Position numbers and translations under genes: made by a program
Part shown: positions 8,269 to 32,980 of the stretch, piece after piece
Layout of the letters: every line of letters begins with the position of its first letter
How positions within the stretch are numbered: position 1 is the first letter of the stretch
Notes under the pieces: generated by a model
What the model was told of the DNA's origin: nothing
Seen by the model: the letters and a program-made list of their open reading frames with translations, nothing else
Database searches by the model: none
Assembly: GCA_021845905.1 (NCBI GenBank)
Contig: JAJZVA010000005.1
Location: 36,861-100,860 of the forward strand
Direction of reading: 5' to 3'
Origin: Pseudomonadota bacterium
Lineage (GTDB): Bacteria > Pseudomonadota > Alphaproteobacteria > Micavibrionales > UBA2020
DNA: 64,000 bases

Positions 8269-9261
8269 ATGAATCCATCAAACGAAACGCTGACCGCAGA
8301 ATTGAATAAAGTCGCCGCCGAAGCGCATCAGGCGTTTCCGGAGAAGCTGGAACGTCTGGTCGTGATTTTTCCGCCGCTGGAAACACCGGTTTTTGTCGCG
8401 CCAGCGGTTGCGGCGCATCTGGCGGAGAATGTGGCGGCGGTCAAAAAGGCCGTGCGCGAGTGGGCTGATTGCATGCGCAAACGGTATTGTGCGGGCGTCG
8501 CGTCACGGAATTATCCGCTGGCCGGAATACGCGTGGACATGATTGCACAGGCAGGGGATTGTATCGGCGATGGTAGCGTGGAGTCGAGGCTTTTCAATTT
8601 TCATCACGAGATCGGCCATCATATTCTCAGGAACGGTTACCCCGATGTCGTTTCCGCCCAAAAGGCGGAATGCGCCGCCGATGCCTATGCCATGCTGTGG
8701 CATATCCAGCGGTTCGGCATGGATACATGGATCGTGCGAAGCCGGGCGCAATTCAATGCCGCCCTGATGATCTTCAATGAAGATACCGATCATTACACGG
8801 TGAAAGCACTTCAAAGAGCGATCGAGGTCGCGAAAGAAAAAGATCTTTCCGCCTTGTCGCCGCGTGAAATCGCGGCCGAGGCGGAAAATATAGCCGACGC
8901 ATGCGCGCTTGACGAGGAAACTCTCGGAAGAGTGTGCAATGCTTTCGAACCGGCGCGCGCGCATCTCGACAAAGAGATGGGAGGTCGTCAGGTTGTGATG
9001 AACAAGCTCTATAAATCAGATAAAAACGCCATCCCTGCTTTCTGCCGCGTGGTATTGGACGTTATGTGCGTGCATGCGGATGATGCCGATATCTTCGAGG
9101 CAGGCAAGCAGTACCTGAGCCGTCCGTGTGTCGCGGCATTCATGCAAGAGCAGGCGAAAACCGATCCTTTCTACAAAGATGCGCTCGCGTTTCTCGATCG
9201 GGAGTCCGCGGAAGGCAGAATTATCCATTCTGCGCTGTATACGAAAAAACCTTATTTTTAA
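8269..9261 (+). CDS. Uncharacterised HExxH protein, paralogue 1 (putative Zn-metallopeptidase)
   Basis: Start MNPSNE preceded by AGAGGCGG. HEIGH at 8605-8619 is followed by ...AQKAECAADAYAMLWHIQRFG. No signal peptide. The C-terminus is ...FMQEQAKTDPFYKDALAFL...YTKKPYF. Confidence 0.75.
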   Translation: MNPSNETLTAELNKVAAEAHQAFPEKLERLVVIFPPLETPVFVAPAVAAHLAENVAAVKKAVREWADCMRKRYCAGVASRNYPLAGIRVDMIAQAGDCIGDGSVESRLFNFHHEIGHHILRNGYPDVVSAQKAECAADAYAMLWHIQRFGMDTWIVRSRAQFNAALMIFNEDTDHYTVKALQRAIEVAKEKDLSALSPREIAAEAENIADACALDEETLGRVCNAFEPARAHLDKEMGGRQVVMNKLYKSDKNAIPAFCRVVLDVMCVHADDADIFEAGKQYLSRPCVAAFMQEQAKTDPFYKDALAFLDRESAEGRIIHSALYTKKPYF

Positions 9262-9272
9262 AAGTAAAAAAC

Positions 9273-10268
9273 ATGCAAAGCGCACTGAAACACGAATTCA
9301 ACAAAACGGCGGCGGCGGCGTACGAAGCGTTTCCCGGGAAGCTGGAACGTCTGGTCGTGTTGGTTGTGCCGACGGAGGATACGCCGGTTTATGTTTCGCC
9401 CGCCGTCGCGGAGGAACTCTCGCGGAACGTCGGGGACGTCAAAAAATTTATCGCGGGTTTGTCCGCCGACATGCAACGGAGAGGCTGGGCCGGACTGGCG
9501 AACCGATACGAATCCATTGCGCAAACCTCCATCAATATGGTCGCGTTGAACGAAATATTTTTGCAAAATTTCTACCATGGGCGCGAACGCGAGATGTGGT
9601 CGTTTTTGGTGTTAGATCATGAACTGGGCCACCATGTGACGGAAAAAGGCATGAGCATGATGCTTCACAGGAGCGTCTGCGAATGCTCAGCCGAAGCCTA
9701 TGCCGCGTTGCGCCATATCCAGCGTTTCGGCAAGGGCACGCCGTTTCTGTCCGCTGAAATGAACCGCGTCGCATACAGCATCGTCCTGCGCGCCGACAGT
9801 ACCCATTACACGTCGGAGACGATCGCGCGCGCCATGCAAGTCGCAGAAGACATGGACATTTCGGGGCTTTCGTTGCCCGAGACTGCCGTTCTCGCGCAAA
9901 AAATCGCCGATGAAACGACCATGGGCGAGGGCGTGCTTGAAAAAATCCGCTGCGCTTACAAGCCTGTACAATATGCATACTTCTATCGTATAGGCGATTT
10001 TTCCACCGTTGTCGGCAAGCTTTACGCGCGCGACCCTGACGCCTACGCTCTTTTTTGCCGCGAGACGCTGGCAGTGATGCGGGGGTGGGCTTCCGATGCG
10101 GACGTCTTCAAGGCGGGAAAGCGCTTCCTGAGCTATCCGCCCATCGCTGCCTTTATGCAAGAGCAGGCGAAAACAGACGCTTTCTACAAAGATGCGCTGG
10201 ATTTCCTCAAAAAAGCGCAAAACCGCGGCACGGGCGTTCCCGCGCGTCCTTTTAAAAAGAGTTTTTGA
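9273..10268 (+). CDS. Uncharacterised HExxH protein, paralogue 2
   Basis: Start MQSALKHEFNKTAAAAYEAFPGKLERLVV aligns with paralogue 1 (LNKVAAEAHQAFPEKLERLVV). HELGH at 9618-9632 is followed by ...SVCECSAEAYAALRHIQRFG. The ORF-track start 9126 (GTG) would overlap paralogue 1 out of frame. It begins 11 nt after the paralogue 1 stop. Confidence 0.75.
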   Translation: MQSALKHEFNKTAAAAYEAFPGKLERLVVLVVPTEDTPVYVSPAVAEELSRNVGDVKKFIAGLSADMQRRGWAGLANRYESIAQTSINMVALNEIFLQNFYHGREREMWSFLVLDHELGHHVTEKGMSMMLHRSVCECSAEAYAALRHIQRFGKGTPFLSAEMNRVAYSIVLRADSTHYTSETIARAMQVAEDMDISGLSLPETAVLAQKIADETTMGEGVLEKIRCAYKPVQYAYFYRIGDFSTVVGKLYARDPDAYALFCRETLAVMRGWASDADVFKAGKRFLSYPPIAAFMQEQAKTDAFYKDALDFLKKAQNRGTGVPARPFKKSF

Positions 10269-11248
10269 TGAAGAGCATATTGGCCACCGCAAAAAAATTC
10301 ACGCGCGCCGCGCGAAAGCCGCAAGAAGAGACGTTCGATTTCGAGCGCGAGGTTTTGCAGGTCTGGCGCGATTTTCCGCAAGTGAAGGACAAGGTCTTCT
10401 TTCTCGACGCCAGCAATGACGCGCGCCTCGTCTATCCCGAAGAGAGCGCGGGCCGCGCCGCTGCCGAGGCCTTGTTGCATGAGCGCGACGCCGTGCAGCG
10501 CATGAAAAACACTTTTGCCTCCTGGGGGATGAAAAATTCCTATTGCCAGCCGATCGGCGAAGGACGGCGGCTTTTGTATGTGTTGCGGGAAAAACATCCC
10601 TTTGACAAGATTTCGCCGCGCGCGCCGCAGGCGCAGGAGACGGCGTTCGTCTTCGATCACGAGCTCGGCCATGCGATTATTCCCCATGGAATCGGCATTT
10701 CCGCCAATCTGTCTGAATGCGTCGCCGATGCTTATGCCACCATCCGGCATTTTCAGCGCTACGGGGCGGATTCGCCGCATATCGCCCATATCGTGAACAA
10801 CAGGGCATTCGACTTTATTTTCAGGGACCGGGATTACGGCTTCAGCCACTTCACCAGTTCCGTCACGGAGAAAATTCTTAGCCGCCGCCATGAGATCGAC
10901 TGGAAGGCCCTGACGCCGCAGGAAACGCTCGAACTGGCGGAGAAATTCGCGCTCGGGCATGCAATGAAGATCATTCCGTTGTCGGCGCTGCAAAGCGATT
11001 TCTACGCCGTGCGGATGAGCGGGCAACCCGTCGCGCAGGGCAACAAGCCGCCTTTGAAAAAACTGGCGGAGAAAGTGCTGTCGACGGATTCGGCCGATGT
11101 TTTCAAGTATGGCTCCGCCGCGCTGGCGCTTTATGTCGACAAAGAGACCGCTGACAAGGTTTTGAAAGGAAAATACTGGGATGACGTGCGCAGAAAACTG
11201 GCAATAAAAAGAAAATCATTCACGCAGCCTCCGTCTCCCAAGTTCTGA
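10268..11248 (+). CDS. Uncharacterised HExxH protein, paralogue 3 (divergent)
   Basis: ATG 10268 shares one nt with the paralogue 2 TGA (TGATG). HELGH at 10658-10672 is followed by ...NLSECVADAYATIRHFQRYG. The C-terminus is ...KRKSFTQPPSPKF. Confidence 0.75.
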   Translation: MKSILATAKKFTRAARKPQEETFDFEREVLQVWRDFPQVKDKVFFLDASNDARLVYPEESAGRAAAEALLHERDAVQRMKNTFASWGMKNSYCQPIGEGRRLLYVLREKHPFDKISPRAPQAQETAFVFDHELGHAIIPHGIGISANLSECVADAYATIRHFQRYGADSPHIAHIVNNRAFDFIFRDRDYGFSHFTSSVTEKILSRRHEIDWKALTPQETLELAEKFALGHAMKIIPLSALQSDFYAVRMSGQPVAQGNKPPLKKLAEKVLSTDSADVFKYGSAALALYVDKETADKVLKGKYWDDVRRKLAIKRKSFTQPPSPKF

Positions 11249-23320: not shown

Positions 23321-23475
23321 GGCGCATGCACCCTTTCTCCACAGTGAAGGATGGCGTGTGAAAAGTAAAGACGGCCCCGGCGGAGCATTGGCATATTTAT
23401 AGAAATTAGGTATTCCGGTTCTCTTTTTTGCCTTTTGCTGGGATACTCGTCTTTAGAGAAGCGCCGGGGGCCGTC

Positions 23476-24288
23476 ATGCTGATGTTGTGCTGGTTTTATT
23501 GTATTCCGCTTGCGAAGGGGTTTTTCTTCGCGTCGGGGCCGATGTTGCTGGTGCTCGCGCTGTTCGTGCTCAAGCGGGGCGTGCGCCAGTCGCGCGGCGG
23601 CCTGCGGCAGACGGCTTTCCTTTTCATGTTCGCGGCGCTGCTGAAGATGACGACGGTCGACGTTTATTTTTTGCGCATTTATCTGCTGTGCCGTTTCAAC
23701 CAGTGTCATGACAGCGGCTTCTTCAAGATGGTTCAGTCGGCGGGGCTGGCGGCGCTGGTTGTAGGCAGTTTTCTTTTGCTGTACATCTATCGCGGTTTCG
23801 CGCACGATCGGCGGCAAAAGCCGATCACGCCGGAGCAGGCGCATTTGTCGTTTTGGGCGAATTTCGCGCTGATTTTGGTTTTGATGCTGGTCTTCTGGCT
23901 GGCCGCGCCGTGGGTCGGCTACCTGACGGTCGGGCACGTTCCGGCGTTTTTCATGCGCGTGCCGTGGCAGCGGCTGGCAGAGCTCGATGTCGTCGTGTTG
24001 CTCTACGGTTTCTGGAAGCTGGAGGACTGCACCTGGCTTTACGACCCGGAGGAGCATAAAAAGCGCGGCTACCGGATGAACGTCTGGACGGCGAAGGACA
24101 CGCTCTGGGTGTCGGTTGTTTTGTTCATGATCGCGCTCGGACTGTCTTATGTTTCGAACGATGTCCTCTCCATGTCCATGCCGCGCAAAAGCGAGAGCAT
24201 GCATATCAATCTCCACGGCGTCGATATCGAGCATCTCGGGCCGGGTTTCCAGCAGCCTGACCAGCAAAGCGCGCCCTTGTCGCCATAA
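23476..24288 (+). CDS. Hypothetical multi-pass membrane protein
   Basis: At least 5 hydrophobic helices (MLMLCWFYCIPLAKGFFFASGPMLLVLALFVL; TAFLFMFAALLKMTTVDVYFL; AGLAALVVGSFLLLYIY; FWANFALILVLMLVFWLAAPWVGYL; LWVSVVLFMIALGLSYV). The third codon position is strongly G/C-rich in this frame. The track start 23428 is TTG. Confidence 0.55.
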   Translation: MLMLCWFYCIPLAKGFFFASGPMLLVLALFVLKRGVRQSRGGLRQTAFLFMFAALLKMTTVDVYFLRIYLLCRFNQCHDSGFFKMVQSAGLAALVVGSFLLLYIYRGFAHDRRQKPITPEQAHLSFWANFALILVLMLVFWLAAPWVGYLTVGHVPAFFMRVPWQRLAELDVVVLLYGFWKLEDCTWLYDPEEHKKRGYRMNVWTAKDTLWVSVVLFMIALGLSYVSNDVLSMSMPRKSESMHINLHGVDIEHLGPGFQQPDQQSAPLSP

Positions 24289-24293
24289 AGAAA

Positions 24294-25286
24294 TCAGGCG
24301 CGGTAGAGCCACCAGTTCTTGCTGTTGATCGAGAAGATCGGCTGATAGCGGTCGACGTCGGCGACCGGCTCGACCCTTTTATCCTGATTGTCGAGGACGA
24401 AGTTGCCGTCGCCGAAATGGACGATGAGAATGGCGTGCGCGAGGTCTTCTATCTTGTCCTCGACAACCGCGATTTTGAGCTGGCTGGTCGAAAATCCGAG
24501 CGCACGCAAGGAGACGTATTTGGCGATGGCGTAGTCCTTGCAGTCTCCGCCGCTGTTGAAAAACCGCGTCGCCGTGGCGTGCCAGTAGCCGTATTTGCCG
24601 TAGACGTGCAGGTCGTCGACATAGGGGATGCTGTTCAGGAACTTGTTGATGCCGTCGATTTGCGCCGCGCGGGAAAGGCCTTTCAGTTTCCTGATCTCGT
24701 TCTGCCACATCACGATGCCGGGCGAGGTTGCGTTGGAATCTTCGAGTTGCGACTGAAAACTGTCGATCAGCGCCGACCATCTTCTGAAAGGGGCGATGTC
24801 GTTGGAGCGTGTCGCGTGCATGCCGAACAGTTCGGGGGATTGCGCCGCGGTTGTATTGCTGAATTGCGCCGCGGCGCCCGGAGGTTGAAACGTTGCTTCC
24901 TGCGCCCGGGCGGGCGTGGCGACGGCCGTTTGCGACAATATGACGATCCCCGCGGCGGCGGCGCGCATGCACCATTGTTCCGCCAGCGTTCTGTAGAGCT
25001 GGTGGGCGGTGACGGCTTTCTGGCGGATAAGGATGCGTCCGAGCTGTCCGCCCGATTCTTTCTGCGTTTCCAGCGCGTCATCAAGCTGCGCCCTGGAAAT
25101 AAGCCCGCTGCCGACCAGCAGGTCGCCGAGTTTGAAAGTTTTGATATTTCTCGTAAAAGCTCTGAAAAAGCTGTTCTTCAGGCCTGCATCGGCGTCCGTT
25201 TTGGACTTGCGGGAAGAAAATTTTTGCAACATAGTCTCCCTGTCATGGCTTTGGGGCGGTTCTGCCGGCGTGGTTTTCTGTGTCAT
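24294..25286 (-). CDS. BTLCP (LapG-like transglutaminase-like cysteine protease) with N-terminal tandem MshEN-like motifs and one hydrophobic segment
   Basis: Residues 52-104: KLGDLLVGSGLISRAQLDDALETQ-KESGG-QLGRILIRQKAVTAHQLYRTLAEQ. Residues 107-128: MRAAAAGIVILSQTAVATPARA. C-terminal domain: YWHATATRFFNSGGDCKDYAIAKYVSLRALGF...LAHAILIVHFGDGNFVLDN...YQPIFSINSKNWW (Cys249/His284/Asp299). An alternative start is Met19 (25232). Confidence 0.8.
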   Translation of the reverse strand: MTQKTTPAEPPQSHDRETMLQKFSSRKSKTDADAGLKNSFFRAFTRNIKTFKLGDLLVGSGLISRAQLDDALETQKESGGQLGRILIRQKAVTAHQLYRTLAEQWCMRAAAAGIVILSQTAVATPARAQEATFQPPGAAAQFSNTTAAQSPELFGMHATRSNDIAPFRRWSALIDSFQSQLEDSNATSPGIVMWQNEIRKLKGLSRAAQIDGINKFLNSIPYVDDLHVYGKYGYWHATATRFFNSGGDCKDYAIAKYVSLRALGFSTSQLKIAVVEDKIEDLAHAILIVHFGDGNFVLDNQDKRVEPVADVDRYQPIFSINSKNWWLYRA

Positions 25287-25330
25287 AACGTTTATTATTA
25301 TGCTTAATTATTAATAAAATATGAAAACCA

Positions 25331-25359
25331 TTGACAGAAATGCATATTCTTTATATATT
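25331..25359 (+). promoter_or_regulatory. Near-consensus sigma70-type promoter (TTGACA-17-TATATT) upstream of hldE
   Basis: TTGACA 25331-25336, 17-nt spacer, TATATT 25354-25359. It lies about 65 nt upstream of the hldE ATG 25424. Confidence 0.5.
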
Positions 25360-25380
25360 ACAATCTTATGTAATATATAA
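25351..25380. promoter_or_regulatory. Perfect 12-bp inverted repeat (candidate operator) overlapping the -10 element
   Basis: TTATATATTACA (25351-25362), 6 nt ATCTTA, then TGTAATATATAA (25369-25380). The arms are exact reverse complements. Confidence 0.5.
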
Positions 25381-25423
25381 GGTGGGGAAAAAGCTCATAG
25401 GGCTTATCAAAAAAGGCGTTTAA

Positions 25424-26902
25424 ATGTCTGAAAAAAATAAAAGTTTTGAAAATATAGAGAGTTTCTCCACGGCGCGCATCCTTTGTATTGGGGATGTGAT
25501 GCTGGATCAGTTTATTTACGGCGCGATCGAGCGTATTTCACCCGAAGCGCCGATTCCCGTATTGCTGGTCGAACGCGAGAAGCACATGCTCGGCGGCGCA
25601 GGAAACGTGGTGGCGAATGTGGCGGCGCTGGGCGCGAAGGCTGTCCTGGCGACGGTTGTCGGGGCGGACGCAACCGGCGTGGAAATCAAAAACCAGTTGA
25701 TGGCGCAGGGTATAGATTACATTTTGGAAACGGAAGCGGGCCGCGCGACGACCCGTAAAAGCCGTTTCGTCTGTGGGCCGCAGCAGGTTTTGCGCGTCGA
25801 CCGCGAGAAAACGGTGCCGGTTGCCGCCTCGACGGAAGGCAGAATGATCAGCCGCATATCAGACATCATGCCGCAGGCGGGAGTGGTTATTTTATCCGAT
25901 TATAAAAAGGGTCTGCTGACCGACAGGATCGTGGCGGAGGTCATCTCTTGCGCCCGTCAGCATGGCAAGCCGGTGATCGTCGACCCCAAGGGGCGCGATT
26001 TCGGCCGTTACCGCGGCGCAACGGTCATCACCCCAAATCGCAAGGAGCTTGAAGAAGCCACTGGAATGAAAGCGGAAACGGACGACGAAGTCCGCGCCGC
26101 CGCGATGAAGCTGATTGCCGATTGCGGCATCGATACAGTGCTTGCCACGCGCAGCAAGGACGGCATGACGGTTGTTTCCCGCGAGGCCGAGCCTCTGCAC
26201 ATTCTGGCGCAGGTGCGCGAAGTTTACGATGTTTCCGGCGCGGGCGATACCGTCGTTGCGACCTTTGCGGCGGGGCTTGCCGCGGGCATGCCGGTCAAGG
26301 ACGCCGCATGGCTGGCGAATGTCGCGGCGGGCATCGTCGTCGGCAAGCCGGGCACGGCGACGGCGCGGCTCGATGAAATACGCGCCGTTCTTGAGATGCG
26401 CGCGGTCACGGAGAAAACCTCCGCCGTCCGTCGCGCGCCGAAGCTGAGAACGGTTCAGGATGCGGCGACGCAGGCCGAGCGTCTGCATACGCGGGGCTTG
26501 AAAGTCGGTTTCACCAACGGCTGTTTCGATCTCTTGCATCCGGGTCATTTGTCGGTTTTGCGGCAGGCGCGGGCGGCTTGCGATTTCCTGATCGTCGCGA
26601 TCAACAGCGATGCATCGGTAAAAAGGCTCAAGGGTCCGTCGCGTCCGGTGCAGGGCGACGTCGCCCGCGCGGATATTCTCTCGGCGCTCGATATGGTGGA
26701 TATGGTCGTTGTTTTTGAAGAAGATACGCCTATAGAACTCATCCGTCAGATTAAGCCGGACGTCCTGATCAAAGGCGGGCAGTATAAGCTTGAAGAGGTT
26801 GTCGGTTATGATGTCGTCATGTCTTATGGTGGCACGATCGTGCGCGCGGATATGGAAGAAGGTTTCAGTACGACGGACACTATTTCCAGAATTAAAATAT
26901 AA
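25424..26902 (+). CDS. hldE: Bifunctional D-beta-D-heptose 7-phosphate kinase / D-beta-D-heptose 1-phosphate adenylyltransferase
   Basis: 492 aa. N-terminal ribokinase-like domain (ILCIGDVMLDQFIYG...DVSGAGDTVVATFAAGLAAG) plus C-terminal cytidylyltransferase domain (VGFTNGCFDLLHPGHLSVLRQAR). Confidence 0.95.
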   Translation: MSEKNKSFENIESFSTARILCIGDVMLDQFIYGAIERISPEAPIPVLLVEREKHMLGGAGNVVANVAALGAKAVLATVVGADATGVEIKNQLMAQGIDYILETEAGRATTRKSRFVCGPQQVLRVDREKTVPVAASTEGRMISRISDIMPQAGVVILSDYKKGLLTDRIVAEVISCARQHGKPVIVDPKGRDFGRYRGATVITPNRKELEEATGMKAETDDEVRAAAMKLIADCGIDTVLATRSKDGMTVVSREAEPLHILAQVREVYDVSGAGDTVVATFAAGLAAGMPVKDAAWLANVAAGIVVGKPGTATARLDEIRAVLEMRAVTEKTSAVRRAPKLRTVQDAATQAERLHTRGLKVGFTNGCFDLLHPGHLSVLRQARAACDFLIVAINSDASVKRLKGPSRPVQGDVARADILSALDMVDMVVVFEEDTPIELIRQIKPDVLIKGGQYKLEEVVGYDVVMSYGGTIVRADMEEGFSTTDTISRIKI

Positions 26903-27027
26903 CTTGCCCTTAATCCTGAATATCCCCATCTTATACCCATAATCAAAGATATCTGAAGGACTTGTTAATCCTTTTATGCCACGCTTAAGAGGGTAGGAGA
27001 GTCTTTAAGTGGGGTGCATCTTTGAAT

Positions 27028-28839
27028 ATGACTGATCATTCTGTGTCCAAAGAGAGAAATGTTCCGGTCAGCGGGCAGACGGCGGTTGTCAAAACCGGCA
27101 CGTCGGTCGAAGCGGCCGAGGAGATGATGCTCGACGACGGCAAGAAGTCGAAACGCATCGGCGACCGGCTTGTCGAACAGGGCGTGATCTCCATCGACCA
27201 GCTGAACGTCGCCCTGCATGAAAAACAGAAATCGGGAAAAATGATCGGCCAGATTCTGGTCGATCTCGGCTTCGTTTCCGAAGCGTCGCTCACCGCCTTT
27301 CTTTCGGAAAGCACGGGCTACCTGCAATTCGACGCCAAAAAGACCATGCTCGACCCCGAAGCGCTGGCGCTGATGACCAAAAAGGATGTGCTCAAATATC
27401 AATCCATCCCCATCACCGTCCTGCAGGATAAAAACCAGTTCAGGGTCGCCATGGTCGACCCCTATGACGTGCTGGCGCTCGACAAGCTCAAACAGCTCGT
27501 GCCGCGCGGCTACGAGATCATTCCCTTCGTCTGCCAGTCGTCTGTTTTTTCTGACATCGTGCACAGGGCCTACGGCGTCACGACCTCCATCGACGGCATC
27601 CTGAAAGAGCTGGCGGGCGACAAAACCGCCGCCAAGAAGAACATGGACAGCCTTTCGGAGGAAGAGGCCTACAGCCACCCGATCGTCCGCCTTGTCAACG
27701 CGATCATTTTCGAGGCGGTCAAGATCGGCGCGTCGGACATCCACTTCGAGCCGGAGGAAAATTCCCTGCGTGTCCGCAACCGCATCGACGGCGACCTCGT
27801 GGTGGCGCATGTCATTCACCGCGAATACTGGAACGGCATCTGCCAGCGCCTCAAGATCATGGCGGAGCTGAACATCGCCGACAAGCTCTCGCCGCAGGAC
27901 GGGCGCTTCGGCATGAACATGGGCGGGCGCGAGGCGGACTTCCGCGTCTCCTGCCTGCCGACGGTGCACGGCGAAAACATCGTGCTCCGCATTCTCGACC
28001 AGAACGCGAGCATCGTGCCGGTCGAGAAGCTCGATTTCAGCGAGAGCAACATGAAGCTGATCGAAAAAGTCCTCGCGCGCCCGGAAGGGATCGTCGTCGT
28101 GACCGGCCCGACCGGCTCGGGCAAGACAACGACGCTCTATTCGATGCTCAACGCCATCAATACGCCGGACGTCAACATCCAGACTCTGGAAGATCCGGTG
28201 GAATATTCGTTGCAGGGCATCCGTCAGTCGCATGTGCGCGACGGCGGCGGTTTTTCCTTCGGCGAAGGCATCAAGGCGCTGTTGCGCCAGGACCCGGACA
28301 TCATCTTCGTCGGCGAAATCCGCGACGAAGTGACGGCCGAGCAGGCGCTCAAAGCCGCGATGACCGGCCACCAGGTGTTCAGCTCGCTGCATACCAACGA
28401 CAGCTTCGGCGCCATTCCGCGTCTGGTCGATCTCGGGCTGCAACCGGCGATGCTGGCGGGGGCGATCATCGCCAGCTTCGCGCAGCGTCTCGTGCGGCGC
28501 GTCTGCCCGAAATGCAAGACGTCTTATCAGGCATCCGCGGAAGAATGCCGTCTGCTCGCGGCGGATCCTTCGGCGCCGCCGACGCTCTACAAGGGCGCGG
28601 GATGCGCCGAGTGCGGCGGCACGGGGTATAAAGGCCGTCTGGGCATTCATGAAATTCTCTATGTCGATGAAGAGCTTGAAGAGCTGATCGCCGCCAACCG
28701 CCCTATCGCCGAGATCAAGGCCGCCGCCCACAAAAAAGGCTTCAAGAACATGGCGGACGACGGCGTCGCCAAGGTCTATGCCGGGCTGACAACGCTGGAT
28801 TCCCTGATGAAATCGGTCAACTTCGCCAACAGAATGTAA
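27028..28839 (+). CDS. MshE/GspE/PilB-family secretion ATPase with N-terminal MshEN-like motif pair (orphan in this window)
   Basis: RIGDRLVEQGVISIDQLNVALHEK-QKSGK-MIGQILVDLGFVSEASLTAFLSES (27154-27312). Walker A VTGPTGSGKTTT, Walker B PDIIFVGEIRD, His box GHQVFSSLHTN, and tetra-Cys CPKC...CAEC. The track start 27022 is TTG and ATG is at 27028; alternative ATGs at 27124/27127 would place the motif near the N-terminus. Confidence 0.9.
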   Translation: MTDHSVSKERNVPVSGQTAVVKTGTSVEAAEEMMLDDGKKSKRIGDRLVEQGVISIDQLNVALHEKQKSGKMIGQILVDLGFVSEASLTAFLSESTGYLQFDAKKTMLDPEALALMTKKDVLKYQSIPITVLQDKNQFRVAMVDPYDVLALDKLKQLVPRGYEIIPFVCQSSVFSDIVHRAYGVTTSIDGILKELAGDKTAAKKNMDSLSEEEAYSHPIVRLVNAIIFEAVKIGASDIHFEPEENSLRVRNRIDGDLVVAHVIHREYWNGICQRLKIMAELNIADKLSPQDGRFGMNMGGREADFRVSCLPTVHGENIVLRILDQNASIVPVEKLDFSESNMKLIEKVLARPEGIVVVTGPTGSGKTTTLYSMLNAINTPDVNIQTLEDPVEYSLQGIRQSHVRDGGGFSFGEGIKALLRQDPDIIFVGEIRDEVTAEQALKAAMTGHQVFSSLHTNDSFGAIPRLVDLGLQPAMLAGAIIASFAQRLVRRVCPKCKTSYQASAEECRLLAADPSAPPTLYKGAGCAECGGTGYKGRLGIHEILYVDEELEELIAANRPIAEIKAAAHKKGFKNMADDGVAKVYAGLTTLDSLMKSVNFANRM

Positions 28840-30513: not shown

Positions 30514-31671
30514 CTAGCCGTCTTCAAGATGGAGCAGTGCGGTGGTGCCGATCAGCAGGCCGACCAGCGCGGGCGTCCAGGCGGCGAGACCGGGAGGGAT
30601 CTTTTGCGAGATGCCAAAGGCTTGCAGCATGGACTGGAAGAAAAAGACGAGAAATCCGGTGGCAATGCCGAAAAAGACCATGCGGGCCACGCCGCCCGAG
30701 CGGTGCGGACGGAGCGAGAACGCGGCGGAAAGCAGGATCATGGCGGCGAACAGAAACGGCTGAGCGAGGAGCATTTGGAAATGTATGTAAAGATGGGTGG
30801 CGGGAAAGCCTGTATCTTCCATAACATTCAGGTACTCTGGAATATTCCAGAAGGATATGGTTTCAGGATCGGCGAATGATTCTTCGATCTTCCGCGCGGT
30901 GAGGTTGGTGGGGATTTGCCAGCTTGCCGCGCGCCGCGCGCCGCTCTGGTCGTTGATGACCGGGTTGCGGATCTCCCAATAGCCGTGGCGCAGGTAGGCG
31001 ACCGGGCTGTCCATCCGGCTCAGAAAATTGTCCGCGCCGTCGAAAAAGAGGATCAGGACGTTGTTCAACTGCCAGTTTTTCTTGTTGAACGTGACGGAGT
31101 GGATCAGCGCGTAGCCGTCTTCGTCGCCTGATTTCACGCCTTGCGCCGATGCGACGGATGGATTTATTCCCGCAGCGCCGGGTTTGGTGGGCTGGCGGAG
31201 CCAGATGCCGGTTTTCGAGACGGTGACGAGGTCGCGGTTGGGCTGGAAGTAAGAGGTGTTGAGTTCGTTCGATTTGGCGAGGAACACCGCGGAGAGCGGA
31301 TTGAGCACGGTGGTGGCGAGAACGCCGATCGCCACGGCGCACAGCAGCATCGGGCTGAGGAACTGCCACGCCGAAAGCCCGAAAGAGCGGATGACGACGA
31401 GCTCGCTGGTCTTGTTGAGCCGCCAGCAGGTATAGATCGAGGAAAAGAGGATGCCGATCGAAAGGATGCTTTGCGCGAGATACGGCAGTTTCATCAGCGA
31501 GATGGAAAGGATGGTGCCGAGCGGAATATGCACCTGGCTCCCTGCGCGGCGCAGGGTTTCCACGACGTCGAACATGAACATGATGCCGAGCAGGATCGCC
31601 ATGATGGCGATGAAATTGAGCAGGAACTGCCGGCTGATGTAGCGGAACAGGGTCGAGGTGCTTCCCATCAT
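30514..31671 (-). CDS. lptG: LPS export ABC transporter permease LptG
   Basis: 385 aa: TLFRYISRQFLLNFIAIMAILLGIMFMFDVVETLRRA. YjgP/YjgQ topology. Its ATG overlaps the lptF stop (ATGA). Confidence 0.9.
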   Translation of the reverse strand: MMGSTSTLFRYISRQFLLNFIAIMAILLGIMFMFDVVETLRRAGSQVHIPLGTILSISLMKLPYLAQSILSIGILFSSIYTCWRLNKTSELVVIRSFGLSAWQFLSPMLLCAVAIGVLATTVLNPLSAVFLAKSNELNTSYFQPNRDLVTVSKTGIWLRQPTKPGAAGINPSVASAQGVKSGDEDGYALIHSVTFNKKNWQLNNVLILFFDGADNFLSRMDSPVAYLRHGYWEIRNPVINDQSGARRAASWQIPTNLTARKIEESFADPETISFWNIPEYLNVMEDTGFPATHLYIHFQMLLAQPFLFAAMILLSAAFSLRPHRSGGVARMVFFGIATGFLVFFFQSMLQAFGISQKIPPGLAAWTPALVGLLIGTTALLHLEDG

Positions 31672-32834
31672 GCGGGCGATCCTTTCGCGGCGTCGTCGCG
31701 CTGGGCGTTGCGCCGCACGCGCCAGCGGTGCAGGGCGGACATCAGCGCGTGTTCGCCTCTGGCGTGGAGAAGATAAAAGCCGGTGGCGGCGGGCAAAAGC
31801 GTCGCGCCGAGAAACAGCGGGATGACGCCAAGATGCCTTTTGGAGACGTCGGCGAGACTGAGGCTGAGCGCCTGCATCAGGATGATCAGCGCGCCGGCGG
31901 CGACGATCCGGACATGCTGGCCGCGGCGGTTGAAGGGCCCGAGCAGGAGGACGGCGAGGGCGATCATGGTGAAGTCAAGCGCGTTCCACGGCGTCATGAT
32001 CCGGCTGAAGGCCGACGCGAGAAAAGACTGCGCGTGCGCGCGGTCTTTGGGGTTGCTCATGTCGGGGTGGAGCAATTCGGGCAGGGTGCGCTCTTCCGAG
32101 TCTTTCCAGTGCGCCTGCGCCGCGCCGCCGAGCCCTTTGATCTCGATGGTGTAGCGCGAGAAATAAAGTTTGGACAGCGCACCGCTGGACGGGTCGATCT
32201 GCTGGCGCATGCCGTCGAACACGGTGATGTCGGGAATGTTGCCGTCCATCGTGATGCGGCCTTTTTTGGCGGTGATGACGGTGGGCGGCTTGTTCTTGTC
32301 GCGCGCGTCGTAGATCATCAGGCCGGTCATGTCGCCGTTGCTCAGGCGCGCGTGCAGGTAAATGGTGAGGTCGCTGCCGAACGTGTTGAAGACGCCCTCG
32401 CGCAGCAGAAAGGCTGAATATTTCGTCTGGATCATCTGGCGCATGCCGTCGACCAGCGCGAAGCTGCGCGGCGAGATCCACGTGGTGATCAGGGTCAGAA
32501 AAAGGCTGACGCCGACGGCGAGCAGAATGGCCGGACGCGCGAGGCCGTATTGGTCGACGCCGCAACTGCGCATGACGACGATTTCATTGTCCATAATGAG
32601 TCGGTTGTATGTGAAGATCACGGCAATCGCCAAAGACAAGGGCAGTATAATTTCCAGAAATTTAGGCAGGGTCAGCGCGACAAGACGGATGAACATGCCC
32701 ATGGGCGCGTCCGAGTTGGCGACAAGTTCGAGCAGCTTCAGCGATTGCGTCAGCCAGATGACGAGCGTCAGCGTGACGGCGATGAAGACCGTCGCGGCAA
32801 AGAGGTTTTTGAACAGATAGCGCGTCACTAGCAT
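31668..32834 (-). CDS. lptF: LPS export ABC transporter permease LptF
   Basis: MLVTRYLFKNLFAATVFIAVTLTLVIWLTQSLKLLELV is a typical LptF N-terminus. The track start 32873 is GTG, 13 codons upstream. Confidence 0.9.
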   Translation of the reverse strand: MLVTRYLFKNLFAATVFIAVTLTLVIWLTQSLKLLELVANSDAPMGMFIRLVALTLPKFLEIILPLSLAIAVIFTYNRLIMDNEIVVMRSCGVDQYGLARPAILLAVGVSLFLTLITTWISPRSFALVDGMRQMIQTKYSAFLLREGVFNTFGSDLTIYLHARLSNGDMTGLMIYDARDKNKPPTVITAKKGRITMDGNIPDITVFDGMRQQIDPSSGALSKLYFSRYTIEIKGLGGAAQAHWKDSEERTLPELLHPDMSNPKDRAHAQSFLASAFSRIMTPWNALDFTMIALAVLLLGPFNRRGQHVRIVAAGALIILMQALSLSLADVSKRHLGVIPLFLGATLLPAATGFYLLHARGEHALMSALHRWRVRRNAQRDDAAKGSPA

Positions 32835-32980
32835 GGTGCCCAGTTTATTAGCATCATTTGAAAAAAGAAACACCCACTAGAGCATATCCTGACGAGATGA
32901 TATGATCACGCCGGGTGAGGATGCACGCAAATCATTAATATGGAGCGATGCGTCGGGATGCAATCAAAAGGGGAAGTTCT

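Follow-up and report, generated by a model that had tools for sequence, protein, structure and literature searches.

We analyzed a 64,000-nt stretch of the alphaproteobacterial contig JAJZVA010000005.1 (the window, meaning this whole stretch), which carries on its minus strand, at 24294..25286, an open reading frame (ORF) joining a predicted receptor module for cyclic di-GMP (c-di-GMP, a second messenger), MshEN_N, to a signal-peptide-like hydrophobic segment and a protease domain of the BTLCP family. The ORF is read as 330 amino acids, with the stop codon included in its coordinates, and all protein residue numbers refer to this reading. A protein identical to the fusion was found on 24 public contigs, and the metagenome-assembled genome GCA_027326505.1 also contains the window's own sequence. 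In a preliminary description of this DNA, sensor module and protease had been placed in one polypeptide with one hydrophobic segment between them, and this arrangement turned out to be conserved in ~200 homologues, down to 31% identity. No characterized example was known at that point; a literature search for MshEN in combination with BTLCP, LapG, transglutaminase or signal peptide, and for Micavibrio in combination with transglutaminase-like proteins, likewise returned no description of the fusion. The locus combines a receptor module and a protease family, each of them known, in an arrangement that has not been described and that implies a different regulatory logic.

Translation of the fusion probably starts at M19, whose ATG lies at 25232 (25230..25232, minus strand). 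This assignment rests on an AGGGAG sequence 3 nt upstream, on the homologues, which usually begin with MLQK, and on a promoter-like site at 25325..25297; M19 itself is conserved to at least 90% in a 116-sequence alignment. The sigma-70-like promoter candidate (25297..25325, minus strand) is a consensus match only, at 9/12 positions in an AT-rich divergent intergenic region, and its -35 and -10 elements would set the transcription start near 25290. The receptor motif lies within the protein from M19 and from the ORF start alike. The leader was also considered as a possible riboswitch or similar RNA element, but a scan of the whole window at Rfam gathering thresholds gave no match.

Residues 52-104 read KLGDLLVGSGLISRAQLDDALETQ-KESGG-QLGRILIRQKAVTAHQLYRTLAEQ, and the ORF translation reproduces the two 24-residue segments, the spacer and the deviations from the motif exactly as they had been listed. 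On the minus strand, half-motif I (residues 52-75) occupies 25062..25133, the spacer (residues 76-80) 25047..25061 and half-motif II (residues 81-104) 24975..25046. Every position of half-motif I fits the published relaxed motif, the spacer has the same length as that of MshE (PMC5013675), and the last helix of half-motif II continues into the hydrophobic segment. The NCBIfam profile NF053729 ("cyclic di-GMP-binding domain, MshE-related") matches these residues across 53 of 53 profile positions (E = 3.2e-19, 68.5 bits, curated cutoff 38), and the MshEN part of NfrB in NCBIfam is matched by them as well. The Pfam family MshEN (PF05157) finds no match in the window protein, even up to E = 10, and none in the 116 homologues (E up to 0.01), because the MshEN_C (T2SSE_N1) half is missing and only the MshEN_N half is there. 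MshEN_N is defined by two 24-residue half-motifs with a 5-residue spacer that form a four-helix module (Wang et al. 2016, PMC5013675), and the two segments are the halves of one such domain, not two receptors.

Sequence searches against solved structures aligned residues 49-108 with Thermus PilF (6f8l, E 3.6e-13), with the isolated, c-di-GMP-binding GSPII-B domain of PilF (8pdk, 3.3e-8) and with MshE of V. cholerae (5htl, 1.9e-6). For the isolated MshEN_N of MshE, residues 1-62, the KD for c-di-GMP is 0.35 µM (PMC5013675), so that a 53-residue module without MshEN_C suffices. The motif is preceded by a basic helix (residues 36-51, LKNSFFRAFTRNIKTF, 25134..25181, minus strand; helix 38-49 in an AlphaFold2 model), which contains the nearly invariant F40 and gives a positive patch resembling K5/R7/K8 of MshE (PMC5013675). 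Judged by sequence and structural model, the c-di-GMP receptor module looks functional.

The second half of the protein is a BTLCP domain (residues ~150-330, 24297..24839, minus strand), supported by a profile, by structure matches and by a conserved triad. Peptidase_C93 (Pfam PF06035) matches residues 205-312 with 69.3 bits (cutoff 27), and GDCKDYAIAKY, LAHAIL and FVLDN are all found in the protein. The catalytic residues C249 (codon 24540-24542), H284 (24435-24437) and D299 (24390-24392, all minus strand) form a Cys-His-Asp triad that is invariant in the 116 sequences and aligns with the triad region of LapG, so that the complete BTLCP domain that had been proposed stands. Profile searches for both domains had been suggested with it; NF053729 and Peptidase_C93 were significant, PF05157 was not. 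In a phmmer search of solved structures, LapG structures match residues 190-327 (4u65_E, 2.5e-18; 4fgo, 4.6e-14). With the invariant triad and a LapG-like fold in the model, the protease domain looks functional too.

The label "LapG-type" nevertheless proved too strong. Against the LapG equivalog NF045674 the window protein scores 83 bits, compared with a cutoff of 320, and the best E-value in the family, 1.4e-36, is a partial match; by the NCBI criterion the fusion protease is not a LapG orthologue. A calcium-binding D-C-E next to the active site is required in DvhG and LapG, as tested by mutagenesis in DvhG (PMC13090378). Of 202 family members, 180 retain this D-C-E, whereas the window protein has D248-C249-K250, a D-C-K that marks a 22-member subclade containing it. 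In the alignment, K250 (codon 24537-24539, minus strand) stands in place of the calcium-site Glu, and its lysine may take the place of the calcium ion. The only conserved neighbor of the gene is, moreover, hldE and not a Lap gene.

When 5.8 billion proteins were searched, 309 matches were obtained, of which the best 120 were examined for length, coverage and Pfam annotation. These 120 are 293-358 aa long, cover at least 87% of the query and carry, in their precomputed Pfam annotation, transglutaminase-type families only (PF06035 throughout and PF04473 or PF01841 in some cases); no MshEN is annotated in any of them. In the 116-sequence alignment (mean column identity 44%), G54, L68, A71, L72, G83, L101 and Q104 are invariant, and L53, L56, L57, Q75, L82, L86, L97, Y98 and E103 are conserved to at least 90%, such that the N-terminal module is conserved to the same degree as the catalytic core. 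NF053729 matches 116/116 homologues, as does PF06035. Compared with the 0/116 of PF05157, this makes the fusion invisible to Pfam-based architecture surveys. When one genome was scanned for each GTDB species, at least 80 loci were identified, and all those listed cover the query from about residue 13-52 to residue 326-330 at 31-52% identity. Among the loci listed are Micavibrio sp. and Micavibrio aeruginosavorus (cultured strain HCB189, complete genome NZ_CP195303.1); other records are titled Pseudobdellovibrionaceae, Bdellovibrionales bacterium or Alphaproteobacteria bacterium, more rarely Rhodospirillales, Rhodospirillaceae or Pseudomonadota (a few), and one Alcanivorax sp. As NCBI places Micavibrio under Pseudobdellovibrionaceae, the Bdellovibrionales-type labels fit a single Micavibrio-like lineage. 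The survey of the fusion and its neighbors that had been proposed thus located it as a conserved feature of that lineage. On the evidence of these sequences, the fusion is a conserved family under selection and not a chance feature of a single ORF.

Between module and protease lies the hydrophobic segment (residues 105-128, WCMR-AAAAGIVILSQTAVA-TPARA, 24903..24974, minus strand). It ends in an A-x-A site, a predicted signal peptidase I site at A128|Q129 (between 24903 and 24902), and is followed by a disordered, weakly conserved linker (residues 129-149, 24840..24902, minus strand) with low predicted local distance difference test (pLDDT) values and a variable, gapped alignment. Throughout the family, the Q that ends the motif is followed by W-C-(L/I/M)-(K/R), a short hydrophobic stretch rich in Ala, Gly and Ser, a Pro, (A/G/S/V/T)-x-A and usually D or E. 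K or R stands at the start of the hydrophobic core in 193 of 194 sequences. The candidate cleavage site, 23 ± 2 residues past the motif in most of these sequences, has Ala at -1 in 190/194, Ala at -3 in 168/194 and D/E at +1 in 113/194; the rule by which sites were picked favors Ala, and the alignment columns, which are free of this bias, agree. In the 116 sequences, A126 and A128 are conserved to at least 90%, above most of the hydrophobic core, and at least 90% carry Pro in the column of residue 123, where Ala stands in the window protein, its own Pro lying at 125.

Hydrophobicity was summed on an approximate Hessa-type scale over the best 19-residue stretch of each protein, giving +5.4 for the fusion protein, a median of +6.8 for the family (n=202) and about +0.3 to +3 for the Micavibrio clade, where the segment is longer and more hydrophobic. 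On the same scale, the membrane anchors encoded in the window (MotB, FliF, LptF, LptG and AsmA) range from -0.2 to -4.3, the MlaC signal peptide reaches +1.9 and the MlaA lipoprotein signal peptide +3.5. In its anatomy, the "membrane segment" of the preliminary description resembles a cleavable Sec signal peptide and not a stable anchor. LapG and HvyA are exported via classical cleaved signal peptides (PMC13090378, PMC4241560). Signal-peptide anatomy implies that the protease is probably released and not permanently tethered, and that a switch could act on its export or processing instead of by allostery through the membrane. The simplest history suggested by the sequences is the addition of an MshEN_N module ahead of a pre-existing signal peptide.

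An AlphaFold2 model of the fusion was built from the 116-sequence alignment (mean pLDDT 81.6); in it, residues 50-105 reach 87-96 and residues 150-330 exceed 90, with residues 122-148 below 50 (disordered). Foldseek superposes the N-terminal module on c-di-GMP-bound MshE (5htl_B) at 0.8 Å over 55 columns with 45% identity, and on c-di-GMP-bound PilF GSPII-B (8pdk and mutants) at ~1 Å with 50-52% identity. The best match of the protease domain in the PDB is LapG of L. pneumophila (4fgq, E 1e-9, target TM-score 0.70). Residues 94-121 form one unbroken helix, so that the last helix of motif II, bearing the predicted guanine-contacting residues L97, L101 and Q104, passes directly into the hydrophobic segment from W105. 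In the model, module and signal peptide are physically coupled by this helix.

The fusion gene is divergent from hldE (25424..26902, plus strand), which encodes an ADP-heptose synthesis protein with PfkB and CTP_transf_like domains. Neighbor counts come from 89 loci, all of one lineage: hldE is divergent and adjacent in 77/89, and pyruvate kinase lies convergently downstream in 46/89. The adjacency of hldE may reflect a functional link to lipopolysaccharide or surface glycan or an inherited lineage synteny, two explanations that these loci do not separate. The shared intergenic region (25287..25423) is AT-rich, with a median GC of 0.39 compared with 0.50 for the loci (L019-L089), and 39/71 loci contain a conserved block, ...TTTTATGCCnGTTTGTTAGGAATTCGTCAATCTTTCTCGTGTTTAATAG..., which from its sequence is probably the hldE promoter (TTGACG, 17 nt, CATAAA) arranged back-to-back with that of the fusion gene; in the window, a promoter-like TTGACA-17-TATATT lies at 25331..25359 on the plus strand. 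By analogy with hvyA, CtrA-type TTAA-N7-TTAA sites or half-sites were also sought and occurred in 11/71 intergenic regions compared with 2.4 expected, a weak signal.

On the far side of hldE, a MshE/PilB-type secretion ATPase of 605 aa (27022..28839, plus strand) carries an N-terminal MshEN motif of its own, RIGDRLVEQGVISIDQLNVALHEK-QKSGK-MIGQILVDLGFVSEASLTAFLSES, and is by sequence a likely second c-di-GMP receptor, 1.7 kb from the fusion gene. It was dropped as a functional partner, being adjacent in 8/89 loci only, all from the window's near clade. Together with an EAL homologue, the cNMP-EAL counterpart of Bd1971 in M. aeruginosavorus (PMC6717892), this ATPase makes it plausible that the lineage uses c-di-GMP. 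Convergent to the fusion gene, with 5 bp between the stop codons, lies a multi-pass membrane protein of 286 aa without Pfam match (23428..24288, plus strand); in more distant relatives (L007, L008) a DUF4153 membrane protein occupies the equivalent position. Besides hldE, the ATPase and this membrane protein, the nearby genes comprise MlaA/C, LptF/G, arginase and MotA/B, and FliF/FliG, NtrY/X-type regulators and housekeeping genes follow further out, the largest ORF of the window being 766 aa. Neither LapD, LapA, a type I secretion system (T1SS), a giant adhesin nor a GGDEF/EAL protein was found among the 20 large ORFs of the window and the annotated ±10 kb, as had been noted beforehand for LapD, LapA and T1SS genes. 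At related loci, the flanks were identified as hldE and pyruvate kinase, although no screen with Lap queries was run there. For two adjacent ORFs at 9126..10268 and 10265..11248 (both plus strand), encoding 380 and 327 aa, Pfam gives no match at E up to 1e-5. Ankyrin-repeat proteins are also found near the locus, in L001 at 152-727, past LptF/LptG (window 30514-32873) and a Peptidase_M17, as well as in L007 and L008; such proteins are unusual in free-living bacteria and may be related to a predatory or host-associated lifestyle.

Taking these observations together, we propose, with a probability of about 55%, that c-di-GMP acting on an N-terminally extended signal peptide gates the export of the protease or its release by signal peptidase. 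The product would be an exported BTLCP-family cysteine protease or transglutaminase-like enzyme, whose Sec-type signal peptide carries a cytoplasmic MshEN_N on its N-terminal side. With c-di-GMP bound to the module, the signal peptide next to it would change in position or in availability, through its insertion or the exposure of the A-x-A site, and this would decide whether the protease domain is translocated and cut at A128|Q129 by signal peptidase I, or is retained. Retention at high c-di-GMP is a guess at the direction, made by analogy with LapD/LapG. Such inside-out control would act in cis within one polypeptide, as a counterpart to the sequestration of LapG by LapD, and would probably be irreversible for each molecule. 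Candidate substrates would be an outer-membrane-anchored adhesin, as for LapG, or a surface-polysaccharide component, as for HvyA. Ligand-regulated signal-peptidase cleavage of N-in anchored proteins has precedents in RsiV and RsiP (PMC4183432, PMC8844934, PMC6066255).

Several points weigh against this proposal. The hydrophobic core of the segment is very weak at +5.4, so efficient Sec/SRP targeting is not assured, the hydrophobicity scale is approximate, and the choice of cleavage sites favors Ala, although the unbiased alignment columns agree with it. Half-motif II departs from the relaxed consensus at position 1 (Q) and position 10 (K). No diguanylate cyclase is present among the window ORFs scanned, and no substrate gene was identified. 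The adjacency of hldE may be inherited synteny only, since all of the loci belong to one lineage, in which pyruvate kinase is syntenic as well. An N-terminal domain as large as this one (85-105 residues) could by itself prevent processing, large N-terminal domains being able to convert signal peptides into signal anchors. Finally, DvhG of D. vulgaris is a membrane-anchored BTLCP (PMC13090378).

These last two points lead to the strongest alternative, which corresponds to the model of the preliminary description and which we regard as a serious though distinctly less probable reading: the segment would be a permanent N-in/C-out anchor, and c-di-GMP would alter the activity or reach of the uncleaved protease via the membrane helix or via oligomerization. 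The unbroken helix that runs from motif II into the hydrophobic segment would suit such an arrangement, as would the longer and more hydrophobic segment of the Micavibrio clade. Set against this are a hydrophobicity far below that of the window's own anchors, a P-x-x-A-x-A-(D/E) at the periplasmic end, conserved in 190-194 of 194 sequences, that has no obvious purpose in a plain anchor, and the ~20-residue disordered linker, across which a conformational signal to the catalytic domain is hard to picture.

We consider it unlikely that the MshEN-like module no longer senses c-di-GMP and instead serves docking, dimerization, export delay or contact with a pilus or secretion ATPase partner. Loss of binding has occurred in some MshEN domains, for example in XpsE (PMC5013675), a MshE-like ATPase is encoded nearby in the window's own clade, and half-motif II varies across the family at position 1 (Q/P/R/K/H) and at position 10 (G/N/A/K/R/Q; G in 64 of 95 homologues of the first search set). 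However, PilF GSPII-B, which was crystallized with c-di-GMP bound, likewise opens motif I with K and motif II with a non-basic residue, so that the deviations in the window protein, 52% identical to it, are compatible with binding. Across ~200 sequences there is little or no variation in the LG, the Leu triads and the terminal Q, through which the hydrophobic and backbone contacts are made, the disabling changes of the XpsE type (G11V, G40L, L54H, L58C, Q61V) are absent from the fusion module, and the ATPase neighbor is confined to the near clade.

Still less credible is an ordinary LapG with an incidental N-terminal region, its LapD, LapA and T1SS being encoded in another part of the genome. 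LapG structures are the best structure and sequence matches of the catalytic domain, and adhesins of Lap systems may be encoded apart from lapG (PMC13090378), but the low NF045674 score, D-C-K in place of the calcium-binding D-C-E, the lack of any Lap gene among the large ORFs of the 64-kb window and an N-terminal module conserved like the catalytic core all speak against it. Translation from the internal ATG at 24968 (M107), with the motif region as untranslated leader, would yield a plain BTLCP behind a textbook signal peptide, MRAAAAGIVILSQTAVATPARA|QE, and was rejected from the homologue alignments, in which most homologues have L, I or V at this position and the 53 residues upstream, the best-conserved non-catalytic part, keep their protein-level conservation in homologues of as little as 31% identity; in frame, these residues also fit a curated profile.

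The proposed gating of a signal peptide can be set against the BTLCP systems that have been characterized. In the LapD/LapG systems of Pseudomonas fluorescens and Legionella pneumophila, the availability of a periplasmic BTLCP is likewise set by cytoplasmic c-di-GMP, and LapG shares with the fusion the catalytic fold and triad (4fgq, 4u65) and an N-terminal signal peptide. The receptor, however, is a separate protein, LapD (HAMP-GGDEF-EAL), which captures LapG in the periplasm, whereas the fusion bears MshEN_N on the protease's own N-terminus, has no lapD, lapA or T1SS nearby, misses the LapG cutoff and carries D-C-K at the calcium site. DvhG of Desulfovibrio vulgaris is a c-di-GMP-controlled BTLCP in which an N-terminal hydrophobic segment and then a disordered linker precede the catalytic core; unlike the fusion it is without a cytoplasmic sensor, c-di-GMP being read by the separate HD-GYP/dCache protein DvhD, fractionation shows it to be truly anchored in the membrane, and the genes for its adhesin and T1SS lie alongside its own (PMC13090378). 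HvyA of Caulobacter crescentus, compared here by its published description, is an alphaproteobacterial, periplasmic BTLCP with a Sec signal sequence that works outside Lap systems and controls the capsule, not adhesin cleavage; it differs in its plain signal sequence, the lack of a c-di-GMP module, its control by cell-cycle transcription and proteolysis, and its capsule locus (PMC4241560). The neighbor of the fusion is hldE and not a Wzy-type capsule cluster, yet with hldE adjoining, an HvyA-like surface-polysaccharide context is possible, and the setting fits an HvyA-like role in envelope or surface polysaccharide at least as well as an adhesin role.

On the receptor side, MshE, PilF, PilB and NfrB share the two 24-residue half-motifs, the 5-residue spacer and the four-helix module (PMC5013675). 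Known MshEN_N outputs are cytoplasmic (ATPase, glycosyltransferase, REC and others), whereas the output domain of the fusion is predicted to be extracytoplasmic, its module abuts a signal-peptide-like segment and the MshEN_C subdomain is lacking. The one published architecture of the MshEN_N-peptidase type that we found is NlpD AM1_1153 of Acaryochloris marina, with an N-terminal MshEN_N on an envelope peptidase; it is a cyanobacterial Peptidase_M23 that appears as a table entry only, with topology and mechanism unanalyzed (Supplementary Table 4, PMC5013675). RsiV and RsiP resemble the fusion as N-in single-pass proteins with a cytoplasmic N-terminal domain and ligand-regulated signal-peptidase cleavage. 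They differ in that their ligand is external (lysozyme, beta-lactams), that the released part is degraded to free a sigma factor, and that there is no homology (PMC4183432, PMC6066255, PMC8844934).

A search of residues 36-130 against 1.84 billion representative proteins extended the view beyond this family. With E limited to 1e-3 it returned 2,691 matches, and with E limited to 1e-10, 265, a list dominated by proteins with multiple MshEN_N repeats. In about 34-38 of the best 149, MshEN_N, present once or repeatedly, leads directly into a basic residue, then a short hydrophobic stretch and then a signal-peptidase motif. A-x-A sites occur in P0144, P0150, P0166 and P0260, which have three MshEN_N repeats and then a ~140-aa beta-rich domain, as well as in P0141 with Paired_CXXCH, P0197 with fn3 and Big_7, and P0160 with TSP3 repeats; lipobox sites occur in P0159 and P0164 (LSAC|GGGG), P0230 (LASC) and P0139 (LNAC). 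As a lipobox is sensible only in a processed signal peptide, these proteins support the signal-peptide reading of the fusion segment and hint at a wider class. Whether MshEN_N ahead of signal peptides forms a general, undescribed class of "c-di-GMP-sensing signal peptides", through which the messenger gates export or release of Sec substrates protein by protein, is a suggestion that we make only tentatively. If true, it would require no separate receptor or transcriptional step, with cargo including the BTLCP protease, lipoproteins, Ig/fn3 surface proteins and a multihaem-type protein. Such architectures have probably been undercounted, their N-terminal module being unseen by Pfam-based surveys.

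LapD/LapG and DvhD/DvhG carry the c-di-GMP level to a periplasmic BTLCP via a dedicated transmembrane receptor. In the fusion family, a predicted receptor module instead sits on the protease precursor itself, beside the export signal. If this reading is true, no simpler inside-out pathway for c-di-GMP would be known, and a second messenger would here target one individual protein at its export or at its processing by signal peptidase. The fusion family is at the same time a near-universal single-locus marker of epibiotic predators of the Micavibrio type, a group under study as living antibiotics, and with M. aeruginosavorus as a cultured carrier it offers an entry point to the regulation of the predator surface during prey attachment. 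Should the wider class hold, the protease of these predators would link c-di-GMP to the remodeling of their own surface as they attach to prey.

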